Source: an uncultured Candidatus Saccharibacteria bacterium
GTDB lineage: Bacteria > Patescibacteriota > Minisyncoccia > Phycocordibacterales > JACOZG01
NCBI GenBank assembly: GCA_964362645.1
Contig: CAYIFC010000002.1
Span: 1 to 35,330 of the forward strand
Length of the DNA: 35,330 bases
Reading direction: 5' to 3'
Shown: piece by piece, positions 1 to 30,103 of the stretch
Layout of the letters: the number at the start of each line of letters is the position of its first letter
Numbering within the stretch: position 1 is the first letter of the stretch
Program-made: the position numbers and the translations under genes
The notes under the pieces: model-generated
What the model was told of the DNA's origin: nothing
The model's input: the letters and a program-made list of their open reading frames with translations, nothing else
The model's database searches: none

Positions 1-508
1 TCGCGCCCGGGGTGATTTCCCAAATTTCCGCCAACCCTTGTTCTTCGGAAGCGCAAATAATGTGGGCGTCCGAGAGGCACATGGCCCGCACGCGCTGGAG
101 ACCCATCAATTCGCCGGATTGCTCGTAGCGATAAAGTTTAGCAAACTCAGCAATTCGCATCGGCAGATCACGGTAACTGTGGGGTTGCGAGAGATAGAGT
201 TGAAAGTGGTGAGGGCAGGTCATTGGCCGGAGCATAAACTCCTCGTCGTCGATGACAATCGGCGCGTACATTTTGTCTTTATAGTGGGGGTAGTGGCCGG
301 ACTTTTTATAGAGCTCGAGACGGGCGATATCGGGTGTTTCGACATGAAGGTAGCCGCGCTTGATCTCTTCGTTAATTATGAACTGCTCAAGCAAGCGCTT
401 AACCGTAGCGCCCTTAGGTAGAAACATCGGCAAACCCTTGCCGACCGTTGGGTCAATATAAAACAACCCCAACTCCGGCCCTAGCTTCTTATGATCCCTT
501 TCTTCCAT
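1..508 (-). CDS. thrS: Threonyl-tRNA synthetase, N-terminal part of the gene (continues past window start)
   Basis: Reverse-strand translation from ATG (508-506) gives MEERDHKKLGPELGLFYIDPTVGKGLPMFLPKGATVKRLLEQFI...MLRPMTCPHHFQLY...SYRDLPMRIAEFAKLYRYEQSGELMGLQRVRAMCLSDAHIIC, which is the class II ThrRS catalytic core. An in-frame TAA lies at 562-560 with no ATG/GTG/TTG between it and the ATG. It is absent from the ORF track because it runs off the window. Confidence 0.85.
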   Translation of the reverse strand, partial: MEERDHKKLGPELGLFYIDPTVGKGLPMFLPKGATVKRLLEQFIINEEIKRGYLHVETPDIARLELYKKSGHYPHYKDKMYAPIVIDDEEFMLRPMTCPHHFQLYLSQPHSYRDLPMRIAEFAKLYRYEQSGELMGLQRVRAMCLSDAHIICASEEQGLAEIWEITPGA

Positions 509-549
509 GATGGGTTTAATAATAGCAGAAAACCCTGAACCGCTCGGTA

Positions 550-577
550 TTGACGATTTTTAATAGGTGTGATAAGT
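550..577 (+). promoter_or_regulatory. Putative sigma70-type promoter of zinc-ribbon gene 1 (TTGACG-16 nt-ATAAGT)
   Basis: TTGACG at 550-555, a 16-nt spacer, and ATAAGT at 572-577, about 48 nt upstream of GTG 626. The position matches the promoters of the two paralogs. Confidence 0.4.
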
Positions 578-625
578 TGAAAGTTGGAAGTATGATAACT
601 TTGGTCCTTGCGAAAGGGGATAATC

Positions 626-988
626 GTGGATTCGGAAACGAAAGAAATGCTTAGACTCTGGTGGGTTGAATGTTGGAAGCCGGTTTTAAGGGAGCATCGA
701 TTGTCCATCAGCTTTTTTGGGGTCCTACATTTTTGCGGCAGCCTCTGTCTTCTATTATTTGGGCCTTGGCAAATTGGTAACGGTTTGATTATGTGGGCGT
801 CTTGCTACCTAGTTTGCACGATTATTATGCTGCCGATTTTTAGACTCGTCTTTAGAGATTACTGCAAACAAAAGACAGGGCATTCAATTTTTTGCCCAAA
901 TTGCGAGTATGATCTCTACGGTCTCACCGAACCTCGTTGCCCTGAATGTGGCACTGCATTCGAACTCCGCTCTACGTCATCAGCGTAG
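626..988 (+). CDS. Small membrane protein with C-terminal zinc ribbon (paralog 1 of 3)
   Basis: The ORF track gives 608-988. I moved the start to the in-frame GTG 626 because the paralogs start directly after the same leader (cgaaaggggataat). Two hydrophobic helices (ISFFGVLHFCGSLCLLLFGPW, LIMWASCYLVCTIIMLPIFRLVF) are followed by CPNCEYDLYGLTEPRCPECGTAF. Confidence 0.7.
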   Translation: MDSETKEMLRLWWVECWKPVLREHRLSISFFGVLHFCGSLCLLLFGPWQIGNGLIMWASCYLVCTIIMLPIFRLVFRDYCKQKTGHSIFCPNCEYDLYGLTEPRCPECGTAFELRSTSSA

Positions 989-999
989 AGCGGTTTTTT
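967..999 (+). terminator. Intrinsic terminator overlapping the end of zinc-ribbon gene 1
   Basis: Stem ccgctctacg (967-976) pairs with cgtagagcgg (984-993), followed by TTTTTT (994-999). The TAG stop (986-988) lies inside the 3' arm. Confidence 0.75.
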
Positions 1000-1007
1000 A
1001 TTTATTT

Positions 1008-1039
1008 ATATTCCAACATTCTTGAGAATGTGAGAATAT
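1008..1039. repeat. Conserved hairpin element, copy 1 (28-nt core attccaacattcttgagaatgtgagaat at 1010-1037)
   Basis: The core is identical at 2464-2491 and, reverse-complemented, at 29896-29923. It folds as two 6-bp stems (atattc/gaatat, acattc/gaatgt) around a 2x2 internal loop with a ttga loop. Confidence 0.65.
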
Positions 1040-1094
1040 TCTTTTCTCTAATTCGCTCGAATAGGCGAATAGAATTTAGTGAGGGTTGGGCGAA

Positions 1095-1127
1095 ATAAAA
1101 AAGCGTCTCGATGTCACATCGGGACGC
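1095..1127 (-). terminator. Intrinsic terminator of the 169-aa gene (minus strand)
   Basis: An 11-bp stem gcgtctcgatg/catcgggacgc (1103-1127) is followed on the minus strand by a T-run (plus-strand A-run 1095-1102). It sits 20 nt after the stop at 1147. Confidence 0.75.
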
Positions 1128-1146
1128 AGTTGGGTGTGCCAGGTTG

Positions 1147-1656
1147 TTATCCCCAAGTTGGCTTTCGGCTCCAGGGTTTCTTTTCGCCGGTGCCGATTTG
1201 CAGATAATCTTCCATTGGTACATCATTGCAGCGATCATCGCACCAGGGGATCATGCCAACCTGCTGGATCCTTGATCGGATCTCGATGACTCTTAGAAAG
1301 ACGGAGTCAAGAGTGCTAACCATCCACGGTGAGTTTAAGATTATTTGAGTCTGAAAGGGTACAAACCTCTTGCCACTACTCTCTAGGAAAGTTTTTAATT
1401 TGCCGGTTTGGTTCCAGTGGGCAACAACGAACCCGGCATAACCCTTCCTTCGATTCTGAATCACCTTAAAACGGTGTTCGCGTCCGGCGATAGCGCGCCA
1501 AACTGCAAGCCAAAACTCCCAGGGCGCGTTTGGTTCCGTGGTAACCAAACTTTTTACGTTAGCAATTACACCCTCAATATTAAGATTAAATTGGAGATGT
1601 GCGCTATGGTACAAAATTCCCTGATTGGGTGTCGTTGACGCCTTTGCCTTAGTCAT
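1147..1656 (-). CDS. Hypothetical 169-aa protein, paralog A1 (no family recognised)
   Basis: It is a paralog of 2574-3071. Shared blocks are GILYHS, IEGVI-NV, PWEFWL, AG-EHR-K-IQ, YAGF, WNQ and PWCDDRC-DVPME-YL-IG-GEK. GGAG lies 7 nt upstream, and the ATG overlaps the stop of 1649-1867 (ATGACTAA). Confidence 0.75.
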   Translation of the reverse strand: MTKAKASTTPNQGILYHSAHLQFNLNIEGVIANVKSLVTTEPNAPWEFWLAVWRAIAGREHRFKVIQNRRKGYAGFVVAHWNQTGKLKTFLESSGKRFVPFQTQIILNSPWMVSTLDSVFLRVIEIRSRIQQVGMIPWCDDRCNDVPMEDYLQIGTGEKKPWSRKPTWG

Positions 1657-1867
1657 GGCGGGTCTCCATTTGCTCAGTGGGACGGATTTCCGGATGGATG
1701 ACCAGTGGCAAAAAAGTTTGCCCGTCTGGTTTGGGTAGTGACATGATCAGGTCGATCAGGGCTTGAGGCACAGAGATCCAAAATTCTGCTGTGCCCGGGA
1801 AAGGAGCCATTGTCCTATTGCAGGATGCCTTAGCCGGCGAAACACGAACGGGTACCATCTTTTCCAT
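1649..1867 (-). CDS. Hypothetical 72-aa protein, translationally coupled to A1
   Basis: AGGAG lies 7 nt upstream of the ATG, and there is an 8-nt overlap with the downstream gene start. No domain was recognised, and no counterpart exists upstream of paralog A2. Confidence 0.5.
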   Translation of the reverse strand: MEKMVPVRVSPAKASCNRTMAPFPGTAEFWISVPQALIDLIMSLPKPDGQTFLPLVIHPEIRPTEQMETRHD

Positions 1868-1911
1868 TTCTAAACTCCTAAAAGAACAAAATTTATCAAG
1901 TATCCTTAATC

Positions 1912-1939
1912 ACCATAGCAGTTTCTGGTCTAAAATCAA
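1912..1939 (-). promoter_or_regulatory. Putative promoter of the 72-aa/169-aa operon (TTGATT-16 nt-TATGGT on minus strand)
   Basis: On the minus strand, -35 is at 1939-1934 and -10 at 1917-1912. The homologous arrangement (TTGCTT-16-TAAGGT with shared aaactgc before the -10) lies upstream of paralog A2 at 3117-3144. Confidence 0.45.
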
Positions 1940-1943
1940 GAAG

Positions 1944-1973
1944 TTGACGCCGCTTGAGCTGGGCGTGTAAACT
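1944..1973 (+). promoter_or_regulatory. Putative promoter TTGACG-18 nt-TAAACT, back-to-back with the minus-strand promoter
   Basis: TTGACG is at 1944-1949 and TAAACT at 1968-1973. The -35 boxes of the two divergent promoters are 4 nt apart, and the ATG at 1981 is 7 nt after the -10. Confidence 0.45.
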
Positions 1974-1980
1974 AGCAGTA

Positions 1981-2079
1981 ATGGTAAAGAAAACTATTGA
2001 AGAAAGAATGAAGAGAATCAGTGATCTCGAAGACAAAGTTAGTCAACTCGCTGTTAAAGTCGGCCTTCGGTTTAACTAG
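1981..2079 (+). CDS. Possible leaderless 32-aa micro-ORF (MVKKTIEERMKRISDLEDKVSQLAVKVGLRFN)
   Basis: The ATG lies 7 nt downstream of a TAAACT -10 box and there is no SD. The peptide is amphipathic and coiled-coil-like, and it is followed by an 11-bp AT-rich hairpin at 2096-2121. It is below the ORF-track size cutoff. Confidence 0.25.
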   Translation: MVKKTIEERMKRISDLEDKVSQLAVKVGLRFN

Positions 2080-2146
2080 TAATTTGTCATTTCTTCTTAT
2101 TCAATTATTCAATTGAATAAGGGAATAAGGTGGAGGGGTGGGGGAG

Positions 2147-2174
2147 TTGCTATTTTCATAAAAAGTGGTAGGGT
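2147..2174 (+). promoter_or_regulatory. Putative promoter of zinc-ribbon gene 2 (TTGCTA-16 nt-TGgTAGGGT)
   Basis: TTGCTA is at 2147-2152 and the extended -10 tgg-TAGGGT at 2169-2174. It is nearly identical to 3799-3826 (shared ttttcat-aaaagtggtagggtg). Confidence 0.5.
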
Positions 2175-2221
2175 GAAATTAGGAAGTTTTGTAACCTTGT
2201 CCTTCGCGAAAGGGGATAATT

Positions 2222-2443
2222 ATGAGTGACCAGTTTATTCGATTAGTGATGGCTCTCGGTCTTATTACTGTGGCTGTGGCGTGGTTCCATATGCTGTGGG
2301 AAGGTTTTAGGTCGGATTATATTATCGCAGAACGACGGTATAGGGGACTTTGTTTAAAGTGCGGTTATAGTCTCCACGGTCTCATTGAACCACGTTGCCC
2401 CGAATGCGGCACCGCATTTGAACCCCGCCCTGCTTCACCGTAG
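2222..2443 (+). CDS. Small membrane protein with C-terminal zinc ribbon (paralog 2 of 3)
   Basis: 73 aa. One TM helix (LVMALGLITVAVAWFHML) and a basic juxtamembrane segment are followed by CLKCGYSLHGLIEPRCPECGTAF. The SD gaaagggga precedes the ATG. Confidence 0.75.
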   Translation: MSDQFIRLVMALGLITVAVAWFHMLWEGFRSDYIIAERRYRGLCLKCGYSLHGLIEPRCPECGTAFEPRPASP

Positions 2444-2453
2444 GGCGGTTTTT
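2425..2453 (+). terminator. Intrinsic terminator overlapping the end of zinc-ribbon gene 2
   Basis: Stem ccgccct (2425-2431) pairs with agggcgg (2442-2448), followed by TTTTT. The TAG stop (2441-2443) sits at the base of the 3' arm. Confidence 0.7.
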
Positions 2454-2463
2454 CATTACAAAC

Positions 2464-2491
2464 ATTCCAACATTCTTGAGAATGTGAGAAT
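2464..2491. repeat. Conserved hairpin element, copy 2
   Basis: The same 28-nt core attccaacattcttgagaatgtgagaat as at 1010-1037, in the same position between the two convergent terminators. Confidence 0.65.
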
Positions 2492-2516
2492 AACAATTTG
2501 ATGTTTGTGTTAGGTG

Positions 2517-2549
2517 AAATAAAAAAGCGACCCGGGGTGAGTGGGTCGC
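2517..2549 (-). terminator. Intrinsic terminator of the 165-aa gene (minus strand)
   Basis: Stem gcgaccc/gggtcgc (2527-2549) is followed on the minus strand by a T-run. The flanks (gaaataaaaaagcg...cgcag-tgggtg) are conserved with 1095-1135 although the stem sequence differs. Confidence 0.7.
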
Positions 2550-2573
2550 AGGTGGGTGGTTGAATCTATGTCG

Positions 2574-3071
2574 TTACCAGTTTGTTTTCGAGCTCCATGA
2601 TCGCTTTTCGCCTTTGCCGATTGCCAAATAACTTTCCATCGGCACATCGGTGCAACGATCGTCACACCATGGGGCAAGGCCGATATTAGGGATTCCTTGT
2701 CTAAGTTCAGAAACAATAAACAAGGCGGAACTAAGAGTATTAGTCATCTTTGGACTTTGGGGGATTACTGCTTGCTTGGCAAGTGCGACAAATTGCTCAT
2801 CACTGCCCCCAAGAAAACCGTCGAGTTTTTTGTCCTGATTCCAGCAACCGATAATAAATCCGGCATAACTCCTTCCTTCTTTCTGAATGATTTTATATCG
2901 GTGTTCTGATCCCGCGATTGTATCAAAAATTGTAAGCCAAAATTCCCAAGGCTGAATACTTTTTGGAACGAGATTTATCACATTTATTATTACTCCCTCA
3001 ATTGCCTTGTTAAACCATGTTTGGTTACTATGATACAAAATTCCCCAATTCGGCGTATCTTTTTTAGCCAT
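2574..3071 (-). CDS. Hypothetical 165-aa protein, paralog A2 (no family recognised)
   Basis: It is a paralog of 1147-1656 (see that entry). AGGAGG lies 6 nt upstream of the ATG. Confidence 0.75.
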   Translation of the reverse strand: MAKKDTPNWGILYHSNQTWFNKAIEGVIINVINLVPKSIQPWEFWLTIFDTIAGSEHRYKIIQKEGRSYAGFIIGCWNQDKKLDGFLGGSDEQFVALAKQAVIPQSPKMTNTLSSALFIVSELRQGIPNIGLAPWCDDRCTDVPMESYLAIGKGEKRSWSSKTNW

Positions 3072-3116
3072 AAGACTCCTCCTCTCAAAATTAAAAAGAA
3101 CTTCATTACTACTCCC

Positions 3117-3144
3117 ACCTTAGCAGTTTTGCTCCCAAAAGCAA
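3117..3144 (-). promoter_or_regulatory. Putative promoter of paralog A2 (TTGCTT-16 nt-TAAGGT on minus strand)
   Basis: On the minus strand, -35 is at 3144-3139 and -10 at 3122-3117. It is homologous to 1912-1939, including the leader segment gttctttt...aggag. Confidence 0.45.
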
Positions 3145-3191
3145 CCACCCTTGAGATTTTATAAGTTTACGGTTATTCTTTACTAAATTTT

Positions 3192-3680
3192 ATGGATGAA
3201 AAGAAAAACTACGCCTTTATTGACGCGCAAAATCTTCATCTGGGGTCAAAAGATGCGGGTTTAGATATTAATTATCGGAAATTAAGAGTGTATTTAAAGG
3301 ATAAATATAATGTTGATCGAGCCTACCTTTTTATGGGTTATATGCCCCAATATGCTGACATTTATTCTGAACGTTAGGAGCAGGGTTATATCGTTAAATT
3401 CAAACCAGTCTTGATCGCTCATGGTGAGCAAAAGCAGAAAGGTGATATCGATGCCCACTTAGCCTTCTGCGTAATGCTTTACTATCGCGAATACGAAAAA
3501 GCAGTTTTAGTTACTAGTGATGGAGATTTCGATATAGTCGTAAAGTATTTAAATAAGAAAAATAAACTGGCGGCAGTGTTTAGTCCTAATAGAGATAAAT
3601 GTTCGTCTTTATTAAAAATTGCCGCCGGAGGCAAGATGCAATATTTGCAGGATGTAGGAGGAAAAATATTGAAAATATAG
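3192..3680 (+). pseudogene. NYN (LabA-like, PIN-fold) nuclease-domain gene interrupted by one in-frame TAG
   Basis: ORFs 3192-3377 and 3411-3680 share one frame, split only by TAG 3375-3377: NYAFIDAQNLHLG...YADIYSER*EQGYIVKFKP...KGDIDAHLA...VLVTSDGDFDIVVKYL. The conserved acidic motifs are intact on both sides. Confidence 0.7.
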
Positions 3681-3700
3681 ATAACTAGATAAAATAAAAA

Positions 3701-3738
3701 GGCACCGCCAGAGGACGAAACCTCAAGCAGTGCCTTTT
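3701..3738 (+). terminator. Probable intrinsic terminator after the NYN gene
   Basis: An imperfect long hairpin ggcac-c-gc..gagg-acgaaa-cctc..gc-a-gtgcc (3701-3734) is followed by TTTT. Confidence 0.5.
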
Positions 3739-3798
3739 CCTAGTGAACAACCATATATTATCAAACCTATTATGTATGTCAAATCAACGGGCAAAAAT

Positions 3799-3826
3799 TT
3801 GCAGTTTTCATGAAAAGTGGTAGGGT
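3799..3826 (+). promoter_or_regulatory. Putative promoter of zinc-ribbon gene 3 (TTGCAG-16 nt-TGgTAGGGT)
   Basis: TTGCAG is at 3799-3804 and TAGGGT at 3821-3826, preceded by TGg. It is homologous to 2147-2174. Confidence 0.5.
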
Positions 3827-3863
3827 GGGGGAAGGCATTACGGTTTTTCGAAAGGAGGATTAG

Positions 3864-4085
3864 GTGGATATTTTAAAGATAACGACGATAATGTTGGTAG
3901 TGTCATTGCTTGCTCTTTTTGTTGCTTGTTGGGTTTGGTTTTTCGTGAGACGCATTTGTGCAAAGGAAGATTTTCGTTGGAGAAATGGATATTGTATTAA
4001 TTGTGGTTATGATGTCCACTTTCTCACTGAGCCACGTTGTCCAGAATGTGGAACAGTTTTTAATCACCGCCCTATTTCACAGTAG
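3864..4085 (+). CDS. Small membrane protein with C-terminal zinc ribbon (paralog 3 of 3)
   Basis: 73 aa with a GTG start after the SD aaaggagga. One TM helix (IMLVVSLLALFVACWVWFFV) is followed by RR and then CINCGYDVHFLTEPRCPECGTVF. Confidence 0.75.
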   Translation: MDILKITTIMLVVSLLALFVACWVWFFVRRICAKEDFRWRNGYCINCGYDVHFLTEPRCPECGTVFNHRPISQ

Positions 4086-4097
4086 GGCGGTTTTTTT
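4067..4097 (+). terminator. Intrinsic terminator overlapping the end of zinc-ribbon gene 3 and abutting the fmt stop
   Basis: Stem ccgcccta (4067-4074) pairs with tagggcgg (4083-4090), followed by T7 (4091-4097). The TAG stop (4083-4085) is in the 3' arm, and the T-run overlaps the convergent fmt stop codon. Confidence 0.75.
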
Positions 4098-4833
4098 ATT
4101 GTCTCAACCCTCTCAAGAACGCTTGGTACTTCATTTCCTTGCGGCCTTCGGGTTTGACGCGGTCAATTGTAAAAACATTGTTATTAAGGTGAGCAGAGGT
4201 AATTAGAACGCGCAATGGTTTGCCTAAATGCTCGGCGAAATAATAAATGCCGGGGTTAGGAGTGAAAGCTAAGAATTTACGATAATTCAAATTAGCGTCA
4301 TCTTCTAATTTAATTTCCCCATCTTCTTTTTTAACTTTCTTGGTAAAAGTGGCGACGGTGTGATCTTGCTCCAGAGCTTTTATTTCGCCTTTGACCCACT
4401 TGGGCAAAATTTCAGCCAACATATCAGACCCTATTGTTGCGAGCTGATCTCGCAATTGGACGAAATTGGTATTAGGGTCGAGTGCGATTTTCTGTTGAGC
4501 TAAGATTGGCCCGTGGTCGACTTGTTCATCAATTAACATAATCGAGACCCCGGTTTCTTTGTCGCTATTTAAGATTGTGGTTTGGAGAGGTGAAGCGCCG
4601 CGGTGTTTGGGCAGGAGCGAAGGGTGGACATTGATCGTGCCGAACTTGGGCTTATCTAAAACTTCTTTTTTTAAAATCTTGCCGTAACTCGCCACAACAT
4701 ACATGTCAGCATTTTTTGGGATGTCGCTTGTCGTTGTATTTATAACCTGTTTGGGCACCAACCCGTGTTTAGCGAGCCCTTTAAGCACGCCATCAGCAAA
4801 CTCATCCAAGCCGAAGAAAACAAAATCAAGCAT
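4096..4833 (-). CDS. fmt: Methionyl-tRNA formyltransferase
   Basis: Motifs include HPSLLPKHRGASPLQTTILNSDKETGVSIMLIDEQVDHGPIL. I chose the start at ATG 4833 (MLDFVFFG), which overlaps the def stop as ATGCTTGA. The longer ORF to 4914 would overlap def by 89 nt. Confidence 0.85.
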   Translation of the reverse strand: MLDFVFFGLDEFADGVLKGLAKHGLVPKQVINTTTSDIPKNADMYVVASYGKILKKEVLDKPKFGTINVHPSLLPKHRGASPLQTTILNSDKETGVSIMLIDEQVDHGPILAQQKIALDPNTNFVQLRDQLATIGSDMLAEILPKWVKGEIKALEQDHTVATFTKKVKKEDGEIKLEDDANLNYRKFLAFTPNPGIYYFAEHLGKPLRVLITSAHLNNNVFTIDRVKPEGRKEMKYQAFLRGLRQ

Positions 4834-5356
4834 TGTGTTTGTGGTCGTGATCATCAACGACCTCATGTAAACCTTTGGCCGTATCAATAAACAAAATCCC
4901 TTTGAGGTGATCAATCTCGTGCTGGAAGATCTGGGCCATTAAGCCCGAAGCGTGGCGGACAAACTTTCTGCCAGTTTCGTCATAGGCTTCCACGCTCACG
5001 CGCTCGTGCCGTTTCGTTGTGCCGTAGATCCCGCGCACGCTCAAGCAACCTTCGACCATTTCTCTTTTAGATCGAGAATTGCGGGTGATCACTGGATTAA
5101 TAAAAACTAGTTCATTCTTTGGCGCTTTTATATCCAAATTCTCTTCCTCAAAAGCTTTCGGCGACACCACAAAAATTTGCCACGACCCGCCGATTTGCGG
5201 CGCGGCTAAAGCCACTCCATCGTGCGCACTGGCTAAAACCTTCTTCATTTTCGCCACCAACTTTACAAAAGTGGGCGCAGTAATGTCGGCCAAGGGCACT
5301 GCCTTAGCCAATTGCCGCAAAACCTCGCTTCCTTCTTGGATAATTACCTCTTTCAT
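4826..5356 (-). CDS. def: Peptide deformylase
   Basis: The motifs GVALAAPQIG, EGCLS and QHEIDHLKG are present. Confidence 0.92.
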   Translation of the reverse strand: MKEVIIQEGSEVLRQLAKAVPLADITAPTFVKLVAKMKKVLASAHDGVALAAPQIGGSWQIFVVSPKAFEEENLDIKAPKNELVFINPVITRNSRSKREMVEGCLSVRGIYGTTKRHERVSVEAYDETGRKFVRHASGLMAQIFQHEIDHLKGILFIDTAKGLHEVVDDHDHKHNA

Positions 5357-29891: not shown

Positions 29892-29927
29892 AAACATTCT
29901 CACATTCTCAAGAATGTTGGAATGTTT
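29892..29927. repeat. Conserved hairpin element, copy 3 (inverted orientation)
   Basis: The reverse complement of the 28-nt core lies at 29896-29923. Here the outer stem is extended (aaacattc/gaatgttt), and on the plus strand it is followed by a T-run. Confidence 0.65.
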
Positions 29928-29995: not shown

Positions 29996-30044
29996 ATCTA
30001 CCTTCACTATAAACACATAGGTAATGTGGATAAGTAGGGTAGGC

Positions 30045-30097
30045 AAGTGGGAGAAAGTGGTTTAAAATTAGGGGGTAGTGGGTTAAAGTGGTAAACT
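30045..30097 (+). promoter_or_regulatory. Four phased MraZ-box-like direct repeats overlapping an extended -10 promoter (TGgTAAACT) of mraZ
   Basis: The boxes are AAGTGGG (30045-30051), AAGTGGT (30055-30061), TAGTGGG (30076-30082) and AAGTGGT (30086-30092), with starts spaced 10, 21 and 10 nt. TAAACT is at 30092-30097, 6 nt before ATG 30104. Confidence 0.6.
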
Positions 30098-30103
30098 AGA
30101 AAA

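Follow-up and report, generated by a model that had tools for sequence, protein, structure and literature searches.

Toxin-antitoxin and effector-immunity modules are the closest described counterparts of a pair of small genes that occurs twice in the DNA analysed here, a 35,330-nucleotide stretch that makes up the whole of contig CAYIFC010000002.1 (the window). Each pair consists of a gene for a membrane protein with a C-terminal zinc ribbon and, on the opposite strand, a gene for a soluble protein of 165 or 169 amino acids (aa). As in such modules, two small genes are adjacent, lie in a variable island and have been duplicated together, with one product membrane-bound and the other soluble. 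The pair differs from these modules in that its genes are convergent and lack co-transcription, its adjacency is not conserved elsewhere, and searches of Pfam and PADLOC found no known toxin, antitoxin or defence domain in it. We propose, with a probability of about 0.55, that the locus arose when two independent accessory genes in a variable island were duplicated in tandem long ago, and that the pairing is not a conserved module. One duplicated adjacency is no evidence for a gene module.

The separate parts of the locus have described counterparts of their own. The 165-aa family resembles lineage-restricted ORFan accessory genes of phage or mobile origin in its tiny taxonomic spread, in having no family or fold match, and in that its relatives stand alone, inserted among housekeeping genes or in a phage-like contig. 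It differs from them in that two diverged paralogs persist in a small genome and are under purifying selection, which is unusual for neutral passenger DNA. The zinc-ribbon proteins have the four-cysteine motif in common with planctomycete-type membrane proteins carrying a CxxCGY-x-L-x-G-x(4-6)-CPECG ribbon, and also a transmembrane (TM) segment before the motif and a tendency towards tandem paralogs. However, the planctomycete-type proteins have a median length of 195 aa compared with 73-120 aa in the window, and their hosts are Planctomycetota, whereas the window is probably of patescibacterial origin; that family is itself without known function, and the window proteins score below the Pfam gathering threshold. 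A 28-nt intergenic block inside each pair can be compared to repetitive extragenic palindromic (REP) and bacterial interspersed mosaic (BIME)-like elements and to the palindromic operators of ArsR/MarR-type repressors. The likeness lies in a 28-32-nt intergenic palindrome that occurs in all intergenic classes, in several copies per contig and often near a winged helix-turn-helix (wHTH) gene. The block differs from these elements in its exact core across contigs of many metagenomes, and no transposase of the REP-associated (RAYT) type turned up (no search aimed at RAYT was made). It also extends beyond promoter regions, with 15 convergent versus 9 divergent sites, and wHTH binding is putative.

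The duplicated cassette

Both pairs are located at 509-4095, a low-GC variable island between thrS and fmt. The region is flanked by thrS on one side and by fmt, def and priA on the other, and its GC content (0.36-0.46) is lower than that of the neighbouring DNA (about 0.48-0.53). In copy 1, the zinc-ribbon gene Zn1 (626-988, plus strand; listed ORF start TTG at 608) converges with the gene for p169, a soluble orphan-family protein of 169 aa (1147-1656, minus strand) characterised from the ORF list, BLASTP, the family alignment and dN/dS. In copy 2, Zn2 (2222-2443, plus strand) converges with the gene for the 165-aa protein p165 (2574-3071, minus strand). The preliminary description had called the two minus-strand genes clear paralogs, and BLASTP bears this out with 53% identity across 161 residues (E 1e-59). 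Each of the motifs it had listed, GILYHS, IEGVI-NV, PWEFWL, AG-EHR-K-IQ, YAGF, WNQ and PWCDDRC-DVPME-YL-IG-GEK, is found in the alignment. Its further proposal that the convergent pair is the duplicated unit also holds, as repeat finding and DNA alignment show nucleotide homology throughout the unit, with repeats spaced 1424-1458 nt apart. Included in the unit are the Zn gene with its promoter, leader and terminator, the 165-aa gene with its promoter and opposing terminator, and the 28-nt block between the two genes.

Comparison of p165 and p169 gave a dN of 0.41 and a dS of about 1.94, with a ratio near 0.2. The saturation of dS implies that the duplication is old, and the low ratio indicates that both copies have been kept by purifying selection and hence are real genes. 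It is therefore extremely improbable that the 165-aa and 169-aa ORFs are non-functional or spurious reading frames in decaying DNA. Such decay would fit the presence in the same island of a probable pseudogene, an NYN-domain gene with an in-frame TAG, and of an orphan 72-aa ORF (orf72), but besides the dN/dS of about 0.2 between the paralogs it is opposed by homologs that occur in independent genomes as well as in a phage-like contig, by the conservation of ribosome-binding sites, promoters and terminators, and by a confident AlphaFold model. The objection is effectively refuted for p165 and p169 and may apply to orf72 only.

Each gene of the cassette has transcription signals of its own. On the minus strand, the orf72/p169 promoter (TTGATT-16-TATGGT, 1939-1912) and the p165 promoter (TTGCTT-16-TAAGGT, 3144-3117) are each preceded by AAACTGC, and the homology of promoters and leaders noted previously is thus reproduced. 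All genes of the convergent pairs end in their own hairpin and U-run, with z-scores from -2.7 to -6.5. The predicted intrinsic terminators are at 967-1003 for Zn1 (plus strand; an 11-bp stem and a T-run, -20 kcal/mol, z -6.3), 1097-1127 for p169 (minus strand; z -2.7), 2425-2453 for Zn2 (plus strand; z -4.7) and 2521-2549 for p165 (minus strand; z -4.3). Stems differ between the copies while the structure is kept; for the p169 terminator, the structure is kept both in copy 2 and in L011, the contig that carries the closest relative of the 165-aa proteins, P0003. With an own terminator for each convergent gene, little antisense read-through is expected, and antisense overlap between the convergent genes appears unlikely.

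The pairing of the two families was examined outside the window. No zinc-ribbon ORF was found near the distant 165-aa relatives, and, of all eight relatives checked, the seven whose flanks are readable have no zinc-ribbon neighbour. Conversely, no 165-family ORF was found within 4 kb of the best 80 of at least 476 zinc-ribbon relatives. In the window itself, the third zinc-ribbon paralog, Zn3, has no 165-aa partner. The two families thus co-occur nowhere outside the window among the loci examined, and this independence, which the preliminary description had itself named as grounds for rejection, leaves its two-component module unsupported. The idea that such a module is regulated by convergent transcription fares no better, given the separate promoters and own intrinsic terminators of the genes.

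A version of the module confined to this lineage would consist, for instance, of a membrane effector and, docked on its zinc-ribbon tail, a partner or immunity protein in the cytoplasm, with the two genes duplicated and retained together. We consider this unlikely. Retention of the pair in both copies after an old duplication, with the 165-aa genes under purifying selection, agrees with it, as does the zinc-ribbon tail, which judged by eye is probably cytoplasmic and so on the same side as the soluble 165-aa protein; P0003 may also be paired. Against it stand the lack of any second co-occurrence among the loci examined, the unpaired Zn3, the lack of co-transcription between genes that have a promoter and terminator each, and the finding that neither protein matches a PADLOC or toxin/immunity family. 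A further objection comes from L011, which is syntenic with the window and carries, in this order, fmt, an intact NYN gene, a gene for a secreted protein of 158 aa and P0003. There, a promoter of the Zn2/Zn3 type (TTGC..TTTT...AAAAGTGGTAGGGTG; L011 1461-1492, minus strand) precedes the unrelated secreted 158-aa gene.

Under the preferred reading of two independent genes, the island would have grown when a cassette of about 1.45 kb was duplicated in tandem long ago. This cassette would hold two independent monocistronic genes placed tail-to-tail, one for a membrane zinc-ribbon protein and one for a soluble alpha/beta protein of about 165 aa, each served by a separate sigma-70-like promoter, Shine-Dalgarno site and intrinsic terminator. 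The zinc-ribbon/165-aa adjacency would then be one historical arrangement, copied once.

Several considerations weigh against this reading or narrow its basis. Both genes of the pair have been retained in both copies since a synonymous-saturated duplication, and a lineage-specific functional link predicts the same. The co-occurrence statistics are thin, with a family of n=9. All three contigs with P0003 (L011, L012 and L013) end at the identical base, immediately beyond the terminator and 63 nt from the end of the gene, so that the convergent neighbour of the closest relative is hidden and the comparison is confined to longer evolutionary distances; the shared break suggests a repeat-induced assembly break. 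The comparison of the p165 model with known structures covers PDB and BFVD only. The binding or accessory role and the mobile-pool origin considered below for the 165-aa protein are inference only. The host is probably a member of the Patescibacteria, an assignment made from sample and gene content. Finally, the analysis was carried out from sequence alone.

The two protein families

The 165-aa family is very small. An indexed search of 5.8 billion clusters returned the query itself and its paralog only, and when 1.84 billion representatives were scanned in full with an HMM, seven proteins emerged, of which one was the cluster of the query, one was P0003 (1.8e-31) and five were weak matches. 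A profile search added one further member, P0009, for a total of nine sequence clusters in a nine-sequence alignment. Close relatives were sought by locus scans of GTDB genomes, JGI metagenomes and IMG/VR, and none was found. Searches of Pfam, NCBIfam, PHROGs, PADLOC and PDB sequences with all nine members gave no match at E < 0.01. An AlphaFold model of p165 computed with the nine-sequence alignment has a pLDDT of 80.6 and a pTM of 0.78, compared with a pLDDT of 38.5 from two sequences alone. The predicted fold is alpha/beta and consists of three helices at the N-terminus, a roughly four-stranded sheet and two further helices. Foldseek found no neighbour of this model at E <= 1e-3 in PDB or BFVD, the best E values being 0.87 and 0.073, respectively. 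After these remote-homology and structure searches, the 165-aa proteins remain without a family or fold match, in line with their initial description as members of an unknown family.

The positions that are invariant across the nine members are M1 (the start), W42, Q63, G71, W77, P107, T112, G131, W135 and G154. No catalytic-type residue was found among them, which suggests a non-enzymatic binding or accessory protein. The CxxxC pair (CDDRC) is limited to the two window copies, and the corresponding segment reads WCSNGY in P0003 and W-HP-D in the distant relatives. The proteins are soluble, with a maximum 19-residue hydropathy below 1.6 and no conserved cysteine; they are Trp-rich, and basic within the close group.

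The genomic contexts of the distant relatives all differ, and include cysS/dnaB, a ribosomal-protein cluster, MOSC/patatin genes with a minor-pilin cluster, and PaaX_M. P0009 adjoins a pilin-like (N_methyl) gene. P0008 is encoded in a phage-like contig of 75 kb with an HNH nuclease, an aminoacyl-tRNA synthetase (aaRS) with a PHROG match at 1e-136, and numerous small ORFs that run in one direction. Because one relative resides in this phage-like contig and the others are solitary insertions, the family probably derives from a mobile or phage-linked gene pool. Two candidate associations were discarded. P0006 and P0004 are followed by unrelated genes, leaving no conserved neighbour among the distant relatives, and a link to type IV pili was set aside since the pilin-like genes near two relatives are 2-5 kb away or weak matches only. 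The family may be described as dark, with nine clusters among billions and two diverged paralogs kept in a probably reduced genome, and would make a sensible subject for structural and functional studies of Patescibacteria.

The zinc-ribbon proteins belong to a much larger group. Zn1 is a small membrane protein with two hydrophobic segments and a C-terminal zinc ribbon (CPNCEYDLYGLTEPRCPECG). Its start is probably GTG 626 rather than TTG 608, a choice favoured by leader homology with Zn2. Zn2, identified from the ORF list and a motif search, has 73 aa, a single TM segment and a C-terminal zinc ribbon. Zn3 (3864-4085, plus strand; terminator at 4066-4091) also has 73 aa. The three paralogs share 33-43% identity with one another, and all contain the CxxC...CxxC tetrad; their Pfam scores for DZR_2 and Zn_ribbon_3 are 19.8-23.3 bits, below the 27-bit gathering cut-off. 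By the positive-inside rule, read by eye from the sequence, the ribbon probably faces the cytoplasm. A tblastn search of GTDB species representatives (E <= 1e-3) yielded the at least 476 relatives, nearly all from Planctomycetota/Phycisphaerae. This distribution suggests horizontal acquisition, if the window is indeed patescibacterial. The relatives are mostly larger membrane proteins, often present as tandem paralogs, and 71 of 103 have the ribbon at the C-terminus. The best 80 of the at least 476 relatives include no Patescibacteria.

The promoters of Zn2 (TTGCTA-16-TAGGGT, 2147-2174, plus strand) and Zn3 (TTGCAG-16-TAGGGT, 3799-3826, plus strand, located by repeat finding) are 90% identical, and form a block TTGC..TTTT..T(A/G)AAAAGTGGTAGG(G/A)TG at 2147-2175 and 3799-3827. 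It is noted that AAGTGG(G/T) repeats are also present upstream of mraZ (window 30030-30100). These motifs could represent MraZ boxes or else just extended -10 elements.

Dispersed palindromes in and beyond the island

The 28-nt block between the convergent genes is a palindrome, here termed type 1 (ATTCCAACATTCTTGAGAATGTGAGAAT), present at 1010-1037 (plus strand) in copy 1 and as an exact match at 2464-2491 (plus strand) in copy 2. The copies are identical at 28 of 28 positions despite saturated dS in the flanking genes. A third exact copy is found at 29896-29923 (minus strand), far from the island, between a 98-aa membrane ORF and mraZ. The 21-nt core, present at 29896-29916 (minus strand) in this third copy, has exact matches in at least 119 other contigs, which come from the metagenomes of many projects (loci L097-L214). 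Altogether there are at least 136 instances in 120 sequences (the 119 other contigs and the window), with up to five copies per contig. None of the 119 other contigs contains a 165-family or zinc-ribbon gene, and therefore the block is not specific to the pair: it is a dispersed element that carries no pair-specific signal.

The type 1 consensus is a 32-nt palindrome, ACATTC(TC/CA)ACATTCT-TG-AGAATGTGAGAATGT, also written ACATTC(TC/CA)ACATTCTTGAGAATGTGAGAATGT, with arms that form a perfect 15-nt palindrome. Among 115 scorable sites, 93 are outside ORFs, with 48 in co-directional, 15 in convergent and 9 in divergent positions. The element is thus multi-copy, intergenic and palindromic, as REP-like elements are. 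Among the matches listed, 24 ArsR/MarR-like wHTH genes adjoin a type 1 palindrome. In 13 of these 24, the gene stops at the central TGA of the palindrome, giving a C-terminus ...TF(S/Q)HS, and 14 of the 24 lie between two palindromes, the first about 300-357 nt upstream and the second at the stop. Literature searches on the type 1 sequence and on an operator in Patescibacteria brought up nothing of relevance. The palindromes and wHTH genes could constitute a dispersed operator or REP-like module that is undescribed in the literature searched. This conserved palindrome, together with the palindrome-wHTH-palindrome module found in many metagenomes, is the most widely applicable result of the analysis, and could be a dispersed regulatory or mobile element.

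Two related palindromes are present in the island. Type 2 (TAATTCGCTCGAATAGGCGAATAG; also given as TAATTCGCGCGAATAGGCGAATAG) is found at 1043-1072 (plus strand), in copy 1 only, and type 3 (ATTCAATTATTCAATTGAATAAGGGAAT) at 2099-2126 (plus strand), about 20 nt upstream of the -35 box of Zn2. Common to types 1, 2 and 3 is the architecture ATTC-N4-ATTC-N4-GAAT-N4-GAAT. The type 2 motif also co-occurs with type 1 in other contigs (L105, L110, L116, L143 and L155). There is a weak similarity between the type 1 palindrome (1017-1037) and the 3' end of fmt, read on the sense strand (4096-4130, minus strand; CCAA..TTCTTGAGA..TGAGA). An origin as an fmt 3' remnant was rejected; the alignment score of 23 against a shuffle mean of 15 and maximum of 24 is no more than suggestive.

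The common architecture has five sites in the 35-kb window compared with 0.01 expected by chance, and four of the five are in the 3.6-kb island. This concentration raises the alternative that the island is a cassette array shuffled by recombination at the palindromes, which would serve as joints with the genes as passengers. The bracketed wHTH genes, which form a discrete module of about 350 nt elsewhere, the use of one promoter before non-homologous genes, and the break of three assemblies at the identical base beside P0003 are all consistent with such shuffling. So is the direct duplication of 53 nt from the 3' end of fmt, which flanks the NYN gene of L011 (L011 163-215 and 906-958; 44 of 53 positions identical). 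With a score of 61 against a shuffle maximum of 30, and encoding ...KEMNYSAFLRGLR*, this duplicate is the signature of a cassette inserted at the fmt 3' end. However, the island has no recombinase or transposase, and mobility is not demonstrated. The palindromes of the duplicated unit are inside it, between the convergent genes, rather than at its ends, and a tandem segmental event is the simpler account of the duplication. We therefore regard the cassette array as unlikely.

A broader combination of these elements can be formulated, in which the 165-aa proteins would be a new-fold family (apparently Patescibacteria-like and with a member in a phage-like contig) that docks on the zinc-ribbon tail as a membrane-tethered module, in island cassettes organised by ATTC/GAAT palindromes recognised by wHTH proteins. 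This is quite improbable. If true, it would amount to a previously unknown two-protein membrane-tethered module, for example for host or phage interaction.

The 72-aa ORF, the NYN gene and the island borders

In copy 1, orf72 (1649-1867, minus strand) is inserted upstream of p169 and has a good AGGAG ribosome-binding site. As described previously, its stop overlaps the start of the 169-aa gene; the overlap is 8 nt, ATGACTAA, with an ATG start and a TAA stop. The preliminary description had left undecided whether the small gene was lost in copy 2 or gained in copy 1. In copy 2 and in the outgroup L011 (P0003), a similar leader (AAGTTCTTTTTA-ATTTTGAGAGGA) runs directly into the 165-aa-type gene, from which it follows that the orf72 segment of about 220 nt was gained in copy 1. 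No homolog of orf72 was found in 5.8 billion clusters. An origin of orf72 and its leader as a duplicated fragment was dismissed after no similarity appeared among the other sequences compared, and a structured RNA was dismissed on a folding z-score of +0.59 and no Rfam match. The GC content of orf72 is higher, at 0.53. The strain variant L002 has six SNPs within 40 nt (window 1841-1880) that cover the 5' end of orf72 and the bases directly before it, of which three are nonsynonymous and one synonymous in orf72 and two are in the leader; the remainder of the island is almost invariant in L002, and the changes in thrS are mostly synonymous. The ORF may be a young gene or merely a longer leader. 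This putative gene would have been inserted recently, downstream of the ancestral ribosome-binding site and ahead of the first codon of p169.

The NYN-domain gene (NYN/LabA-like nuclease type; 3192-3680, plus strand) is interrupted by the in-frame TAG at 3375-3377, where the intact L011 ortholog encodes Gln. The two halves match PF01936 at E 0.013 and 4e-7, and neither constitutes an intact domain. The L011 ortholog is 83% identical, and an independent assembly (L001) shows the same split as the window. The window gene is probably a nonsense pseudogene. It was considered and rejected as a functional partner of the pair, since the adjacency is seen only in the window and the syntenic L011 and the window copy is probably a pseudogene.

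Contigs that encode the exact p165 and p169 proteins all come from Hainich groundwater well H43, in the 0.1 and 0.2 um filter fractions. Patescibacteria are dominant in the Hainich data set (PMC8672522). Elsewhere in the window are genes for murA, penicillin-binding proteins, RseP, aminoacyl-tRNA synthetases, mraZ and large surface proteins, a content compatible with Patescibacteria. Rfam and tRNA searches of the window returned no match. The right border of the island is fmt (methionyl-tRNA formyltransferase; 4096-4914, minus strand), the C-terminus of which aligns with the L011 fmt fragment. The left border is the 5' part of thrS (1-508, minus strand), which exits the window at its left end and is also called in L002 and L003. 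It encodes an N-terminally truncated threonyl-tRNA synthetase (ThrRS), and the translation aligns with the class II aaRS core. This ThrRS begins at the catalytic core, without N-terminal TGS or editing domains. A likewise truncated ThrRS-like aaRS, 39% identical to that of the window, is encoded in the phage-like contig with P0008 (L006 1113-2321).

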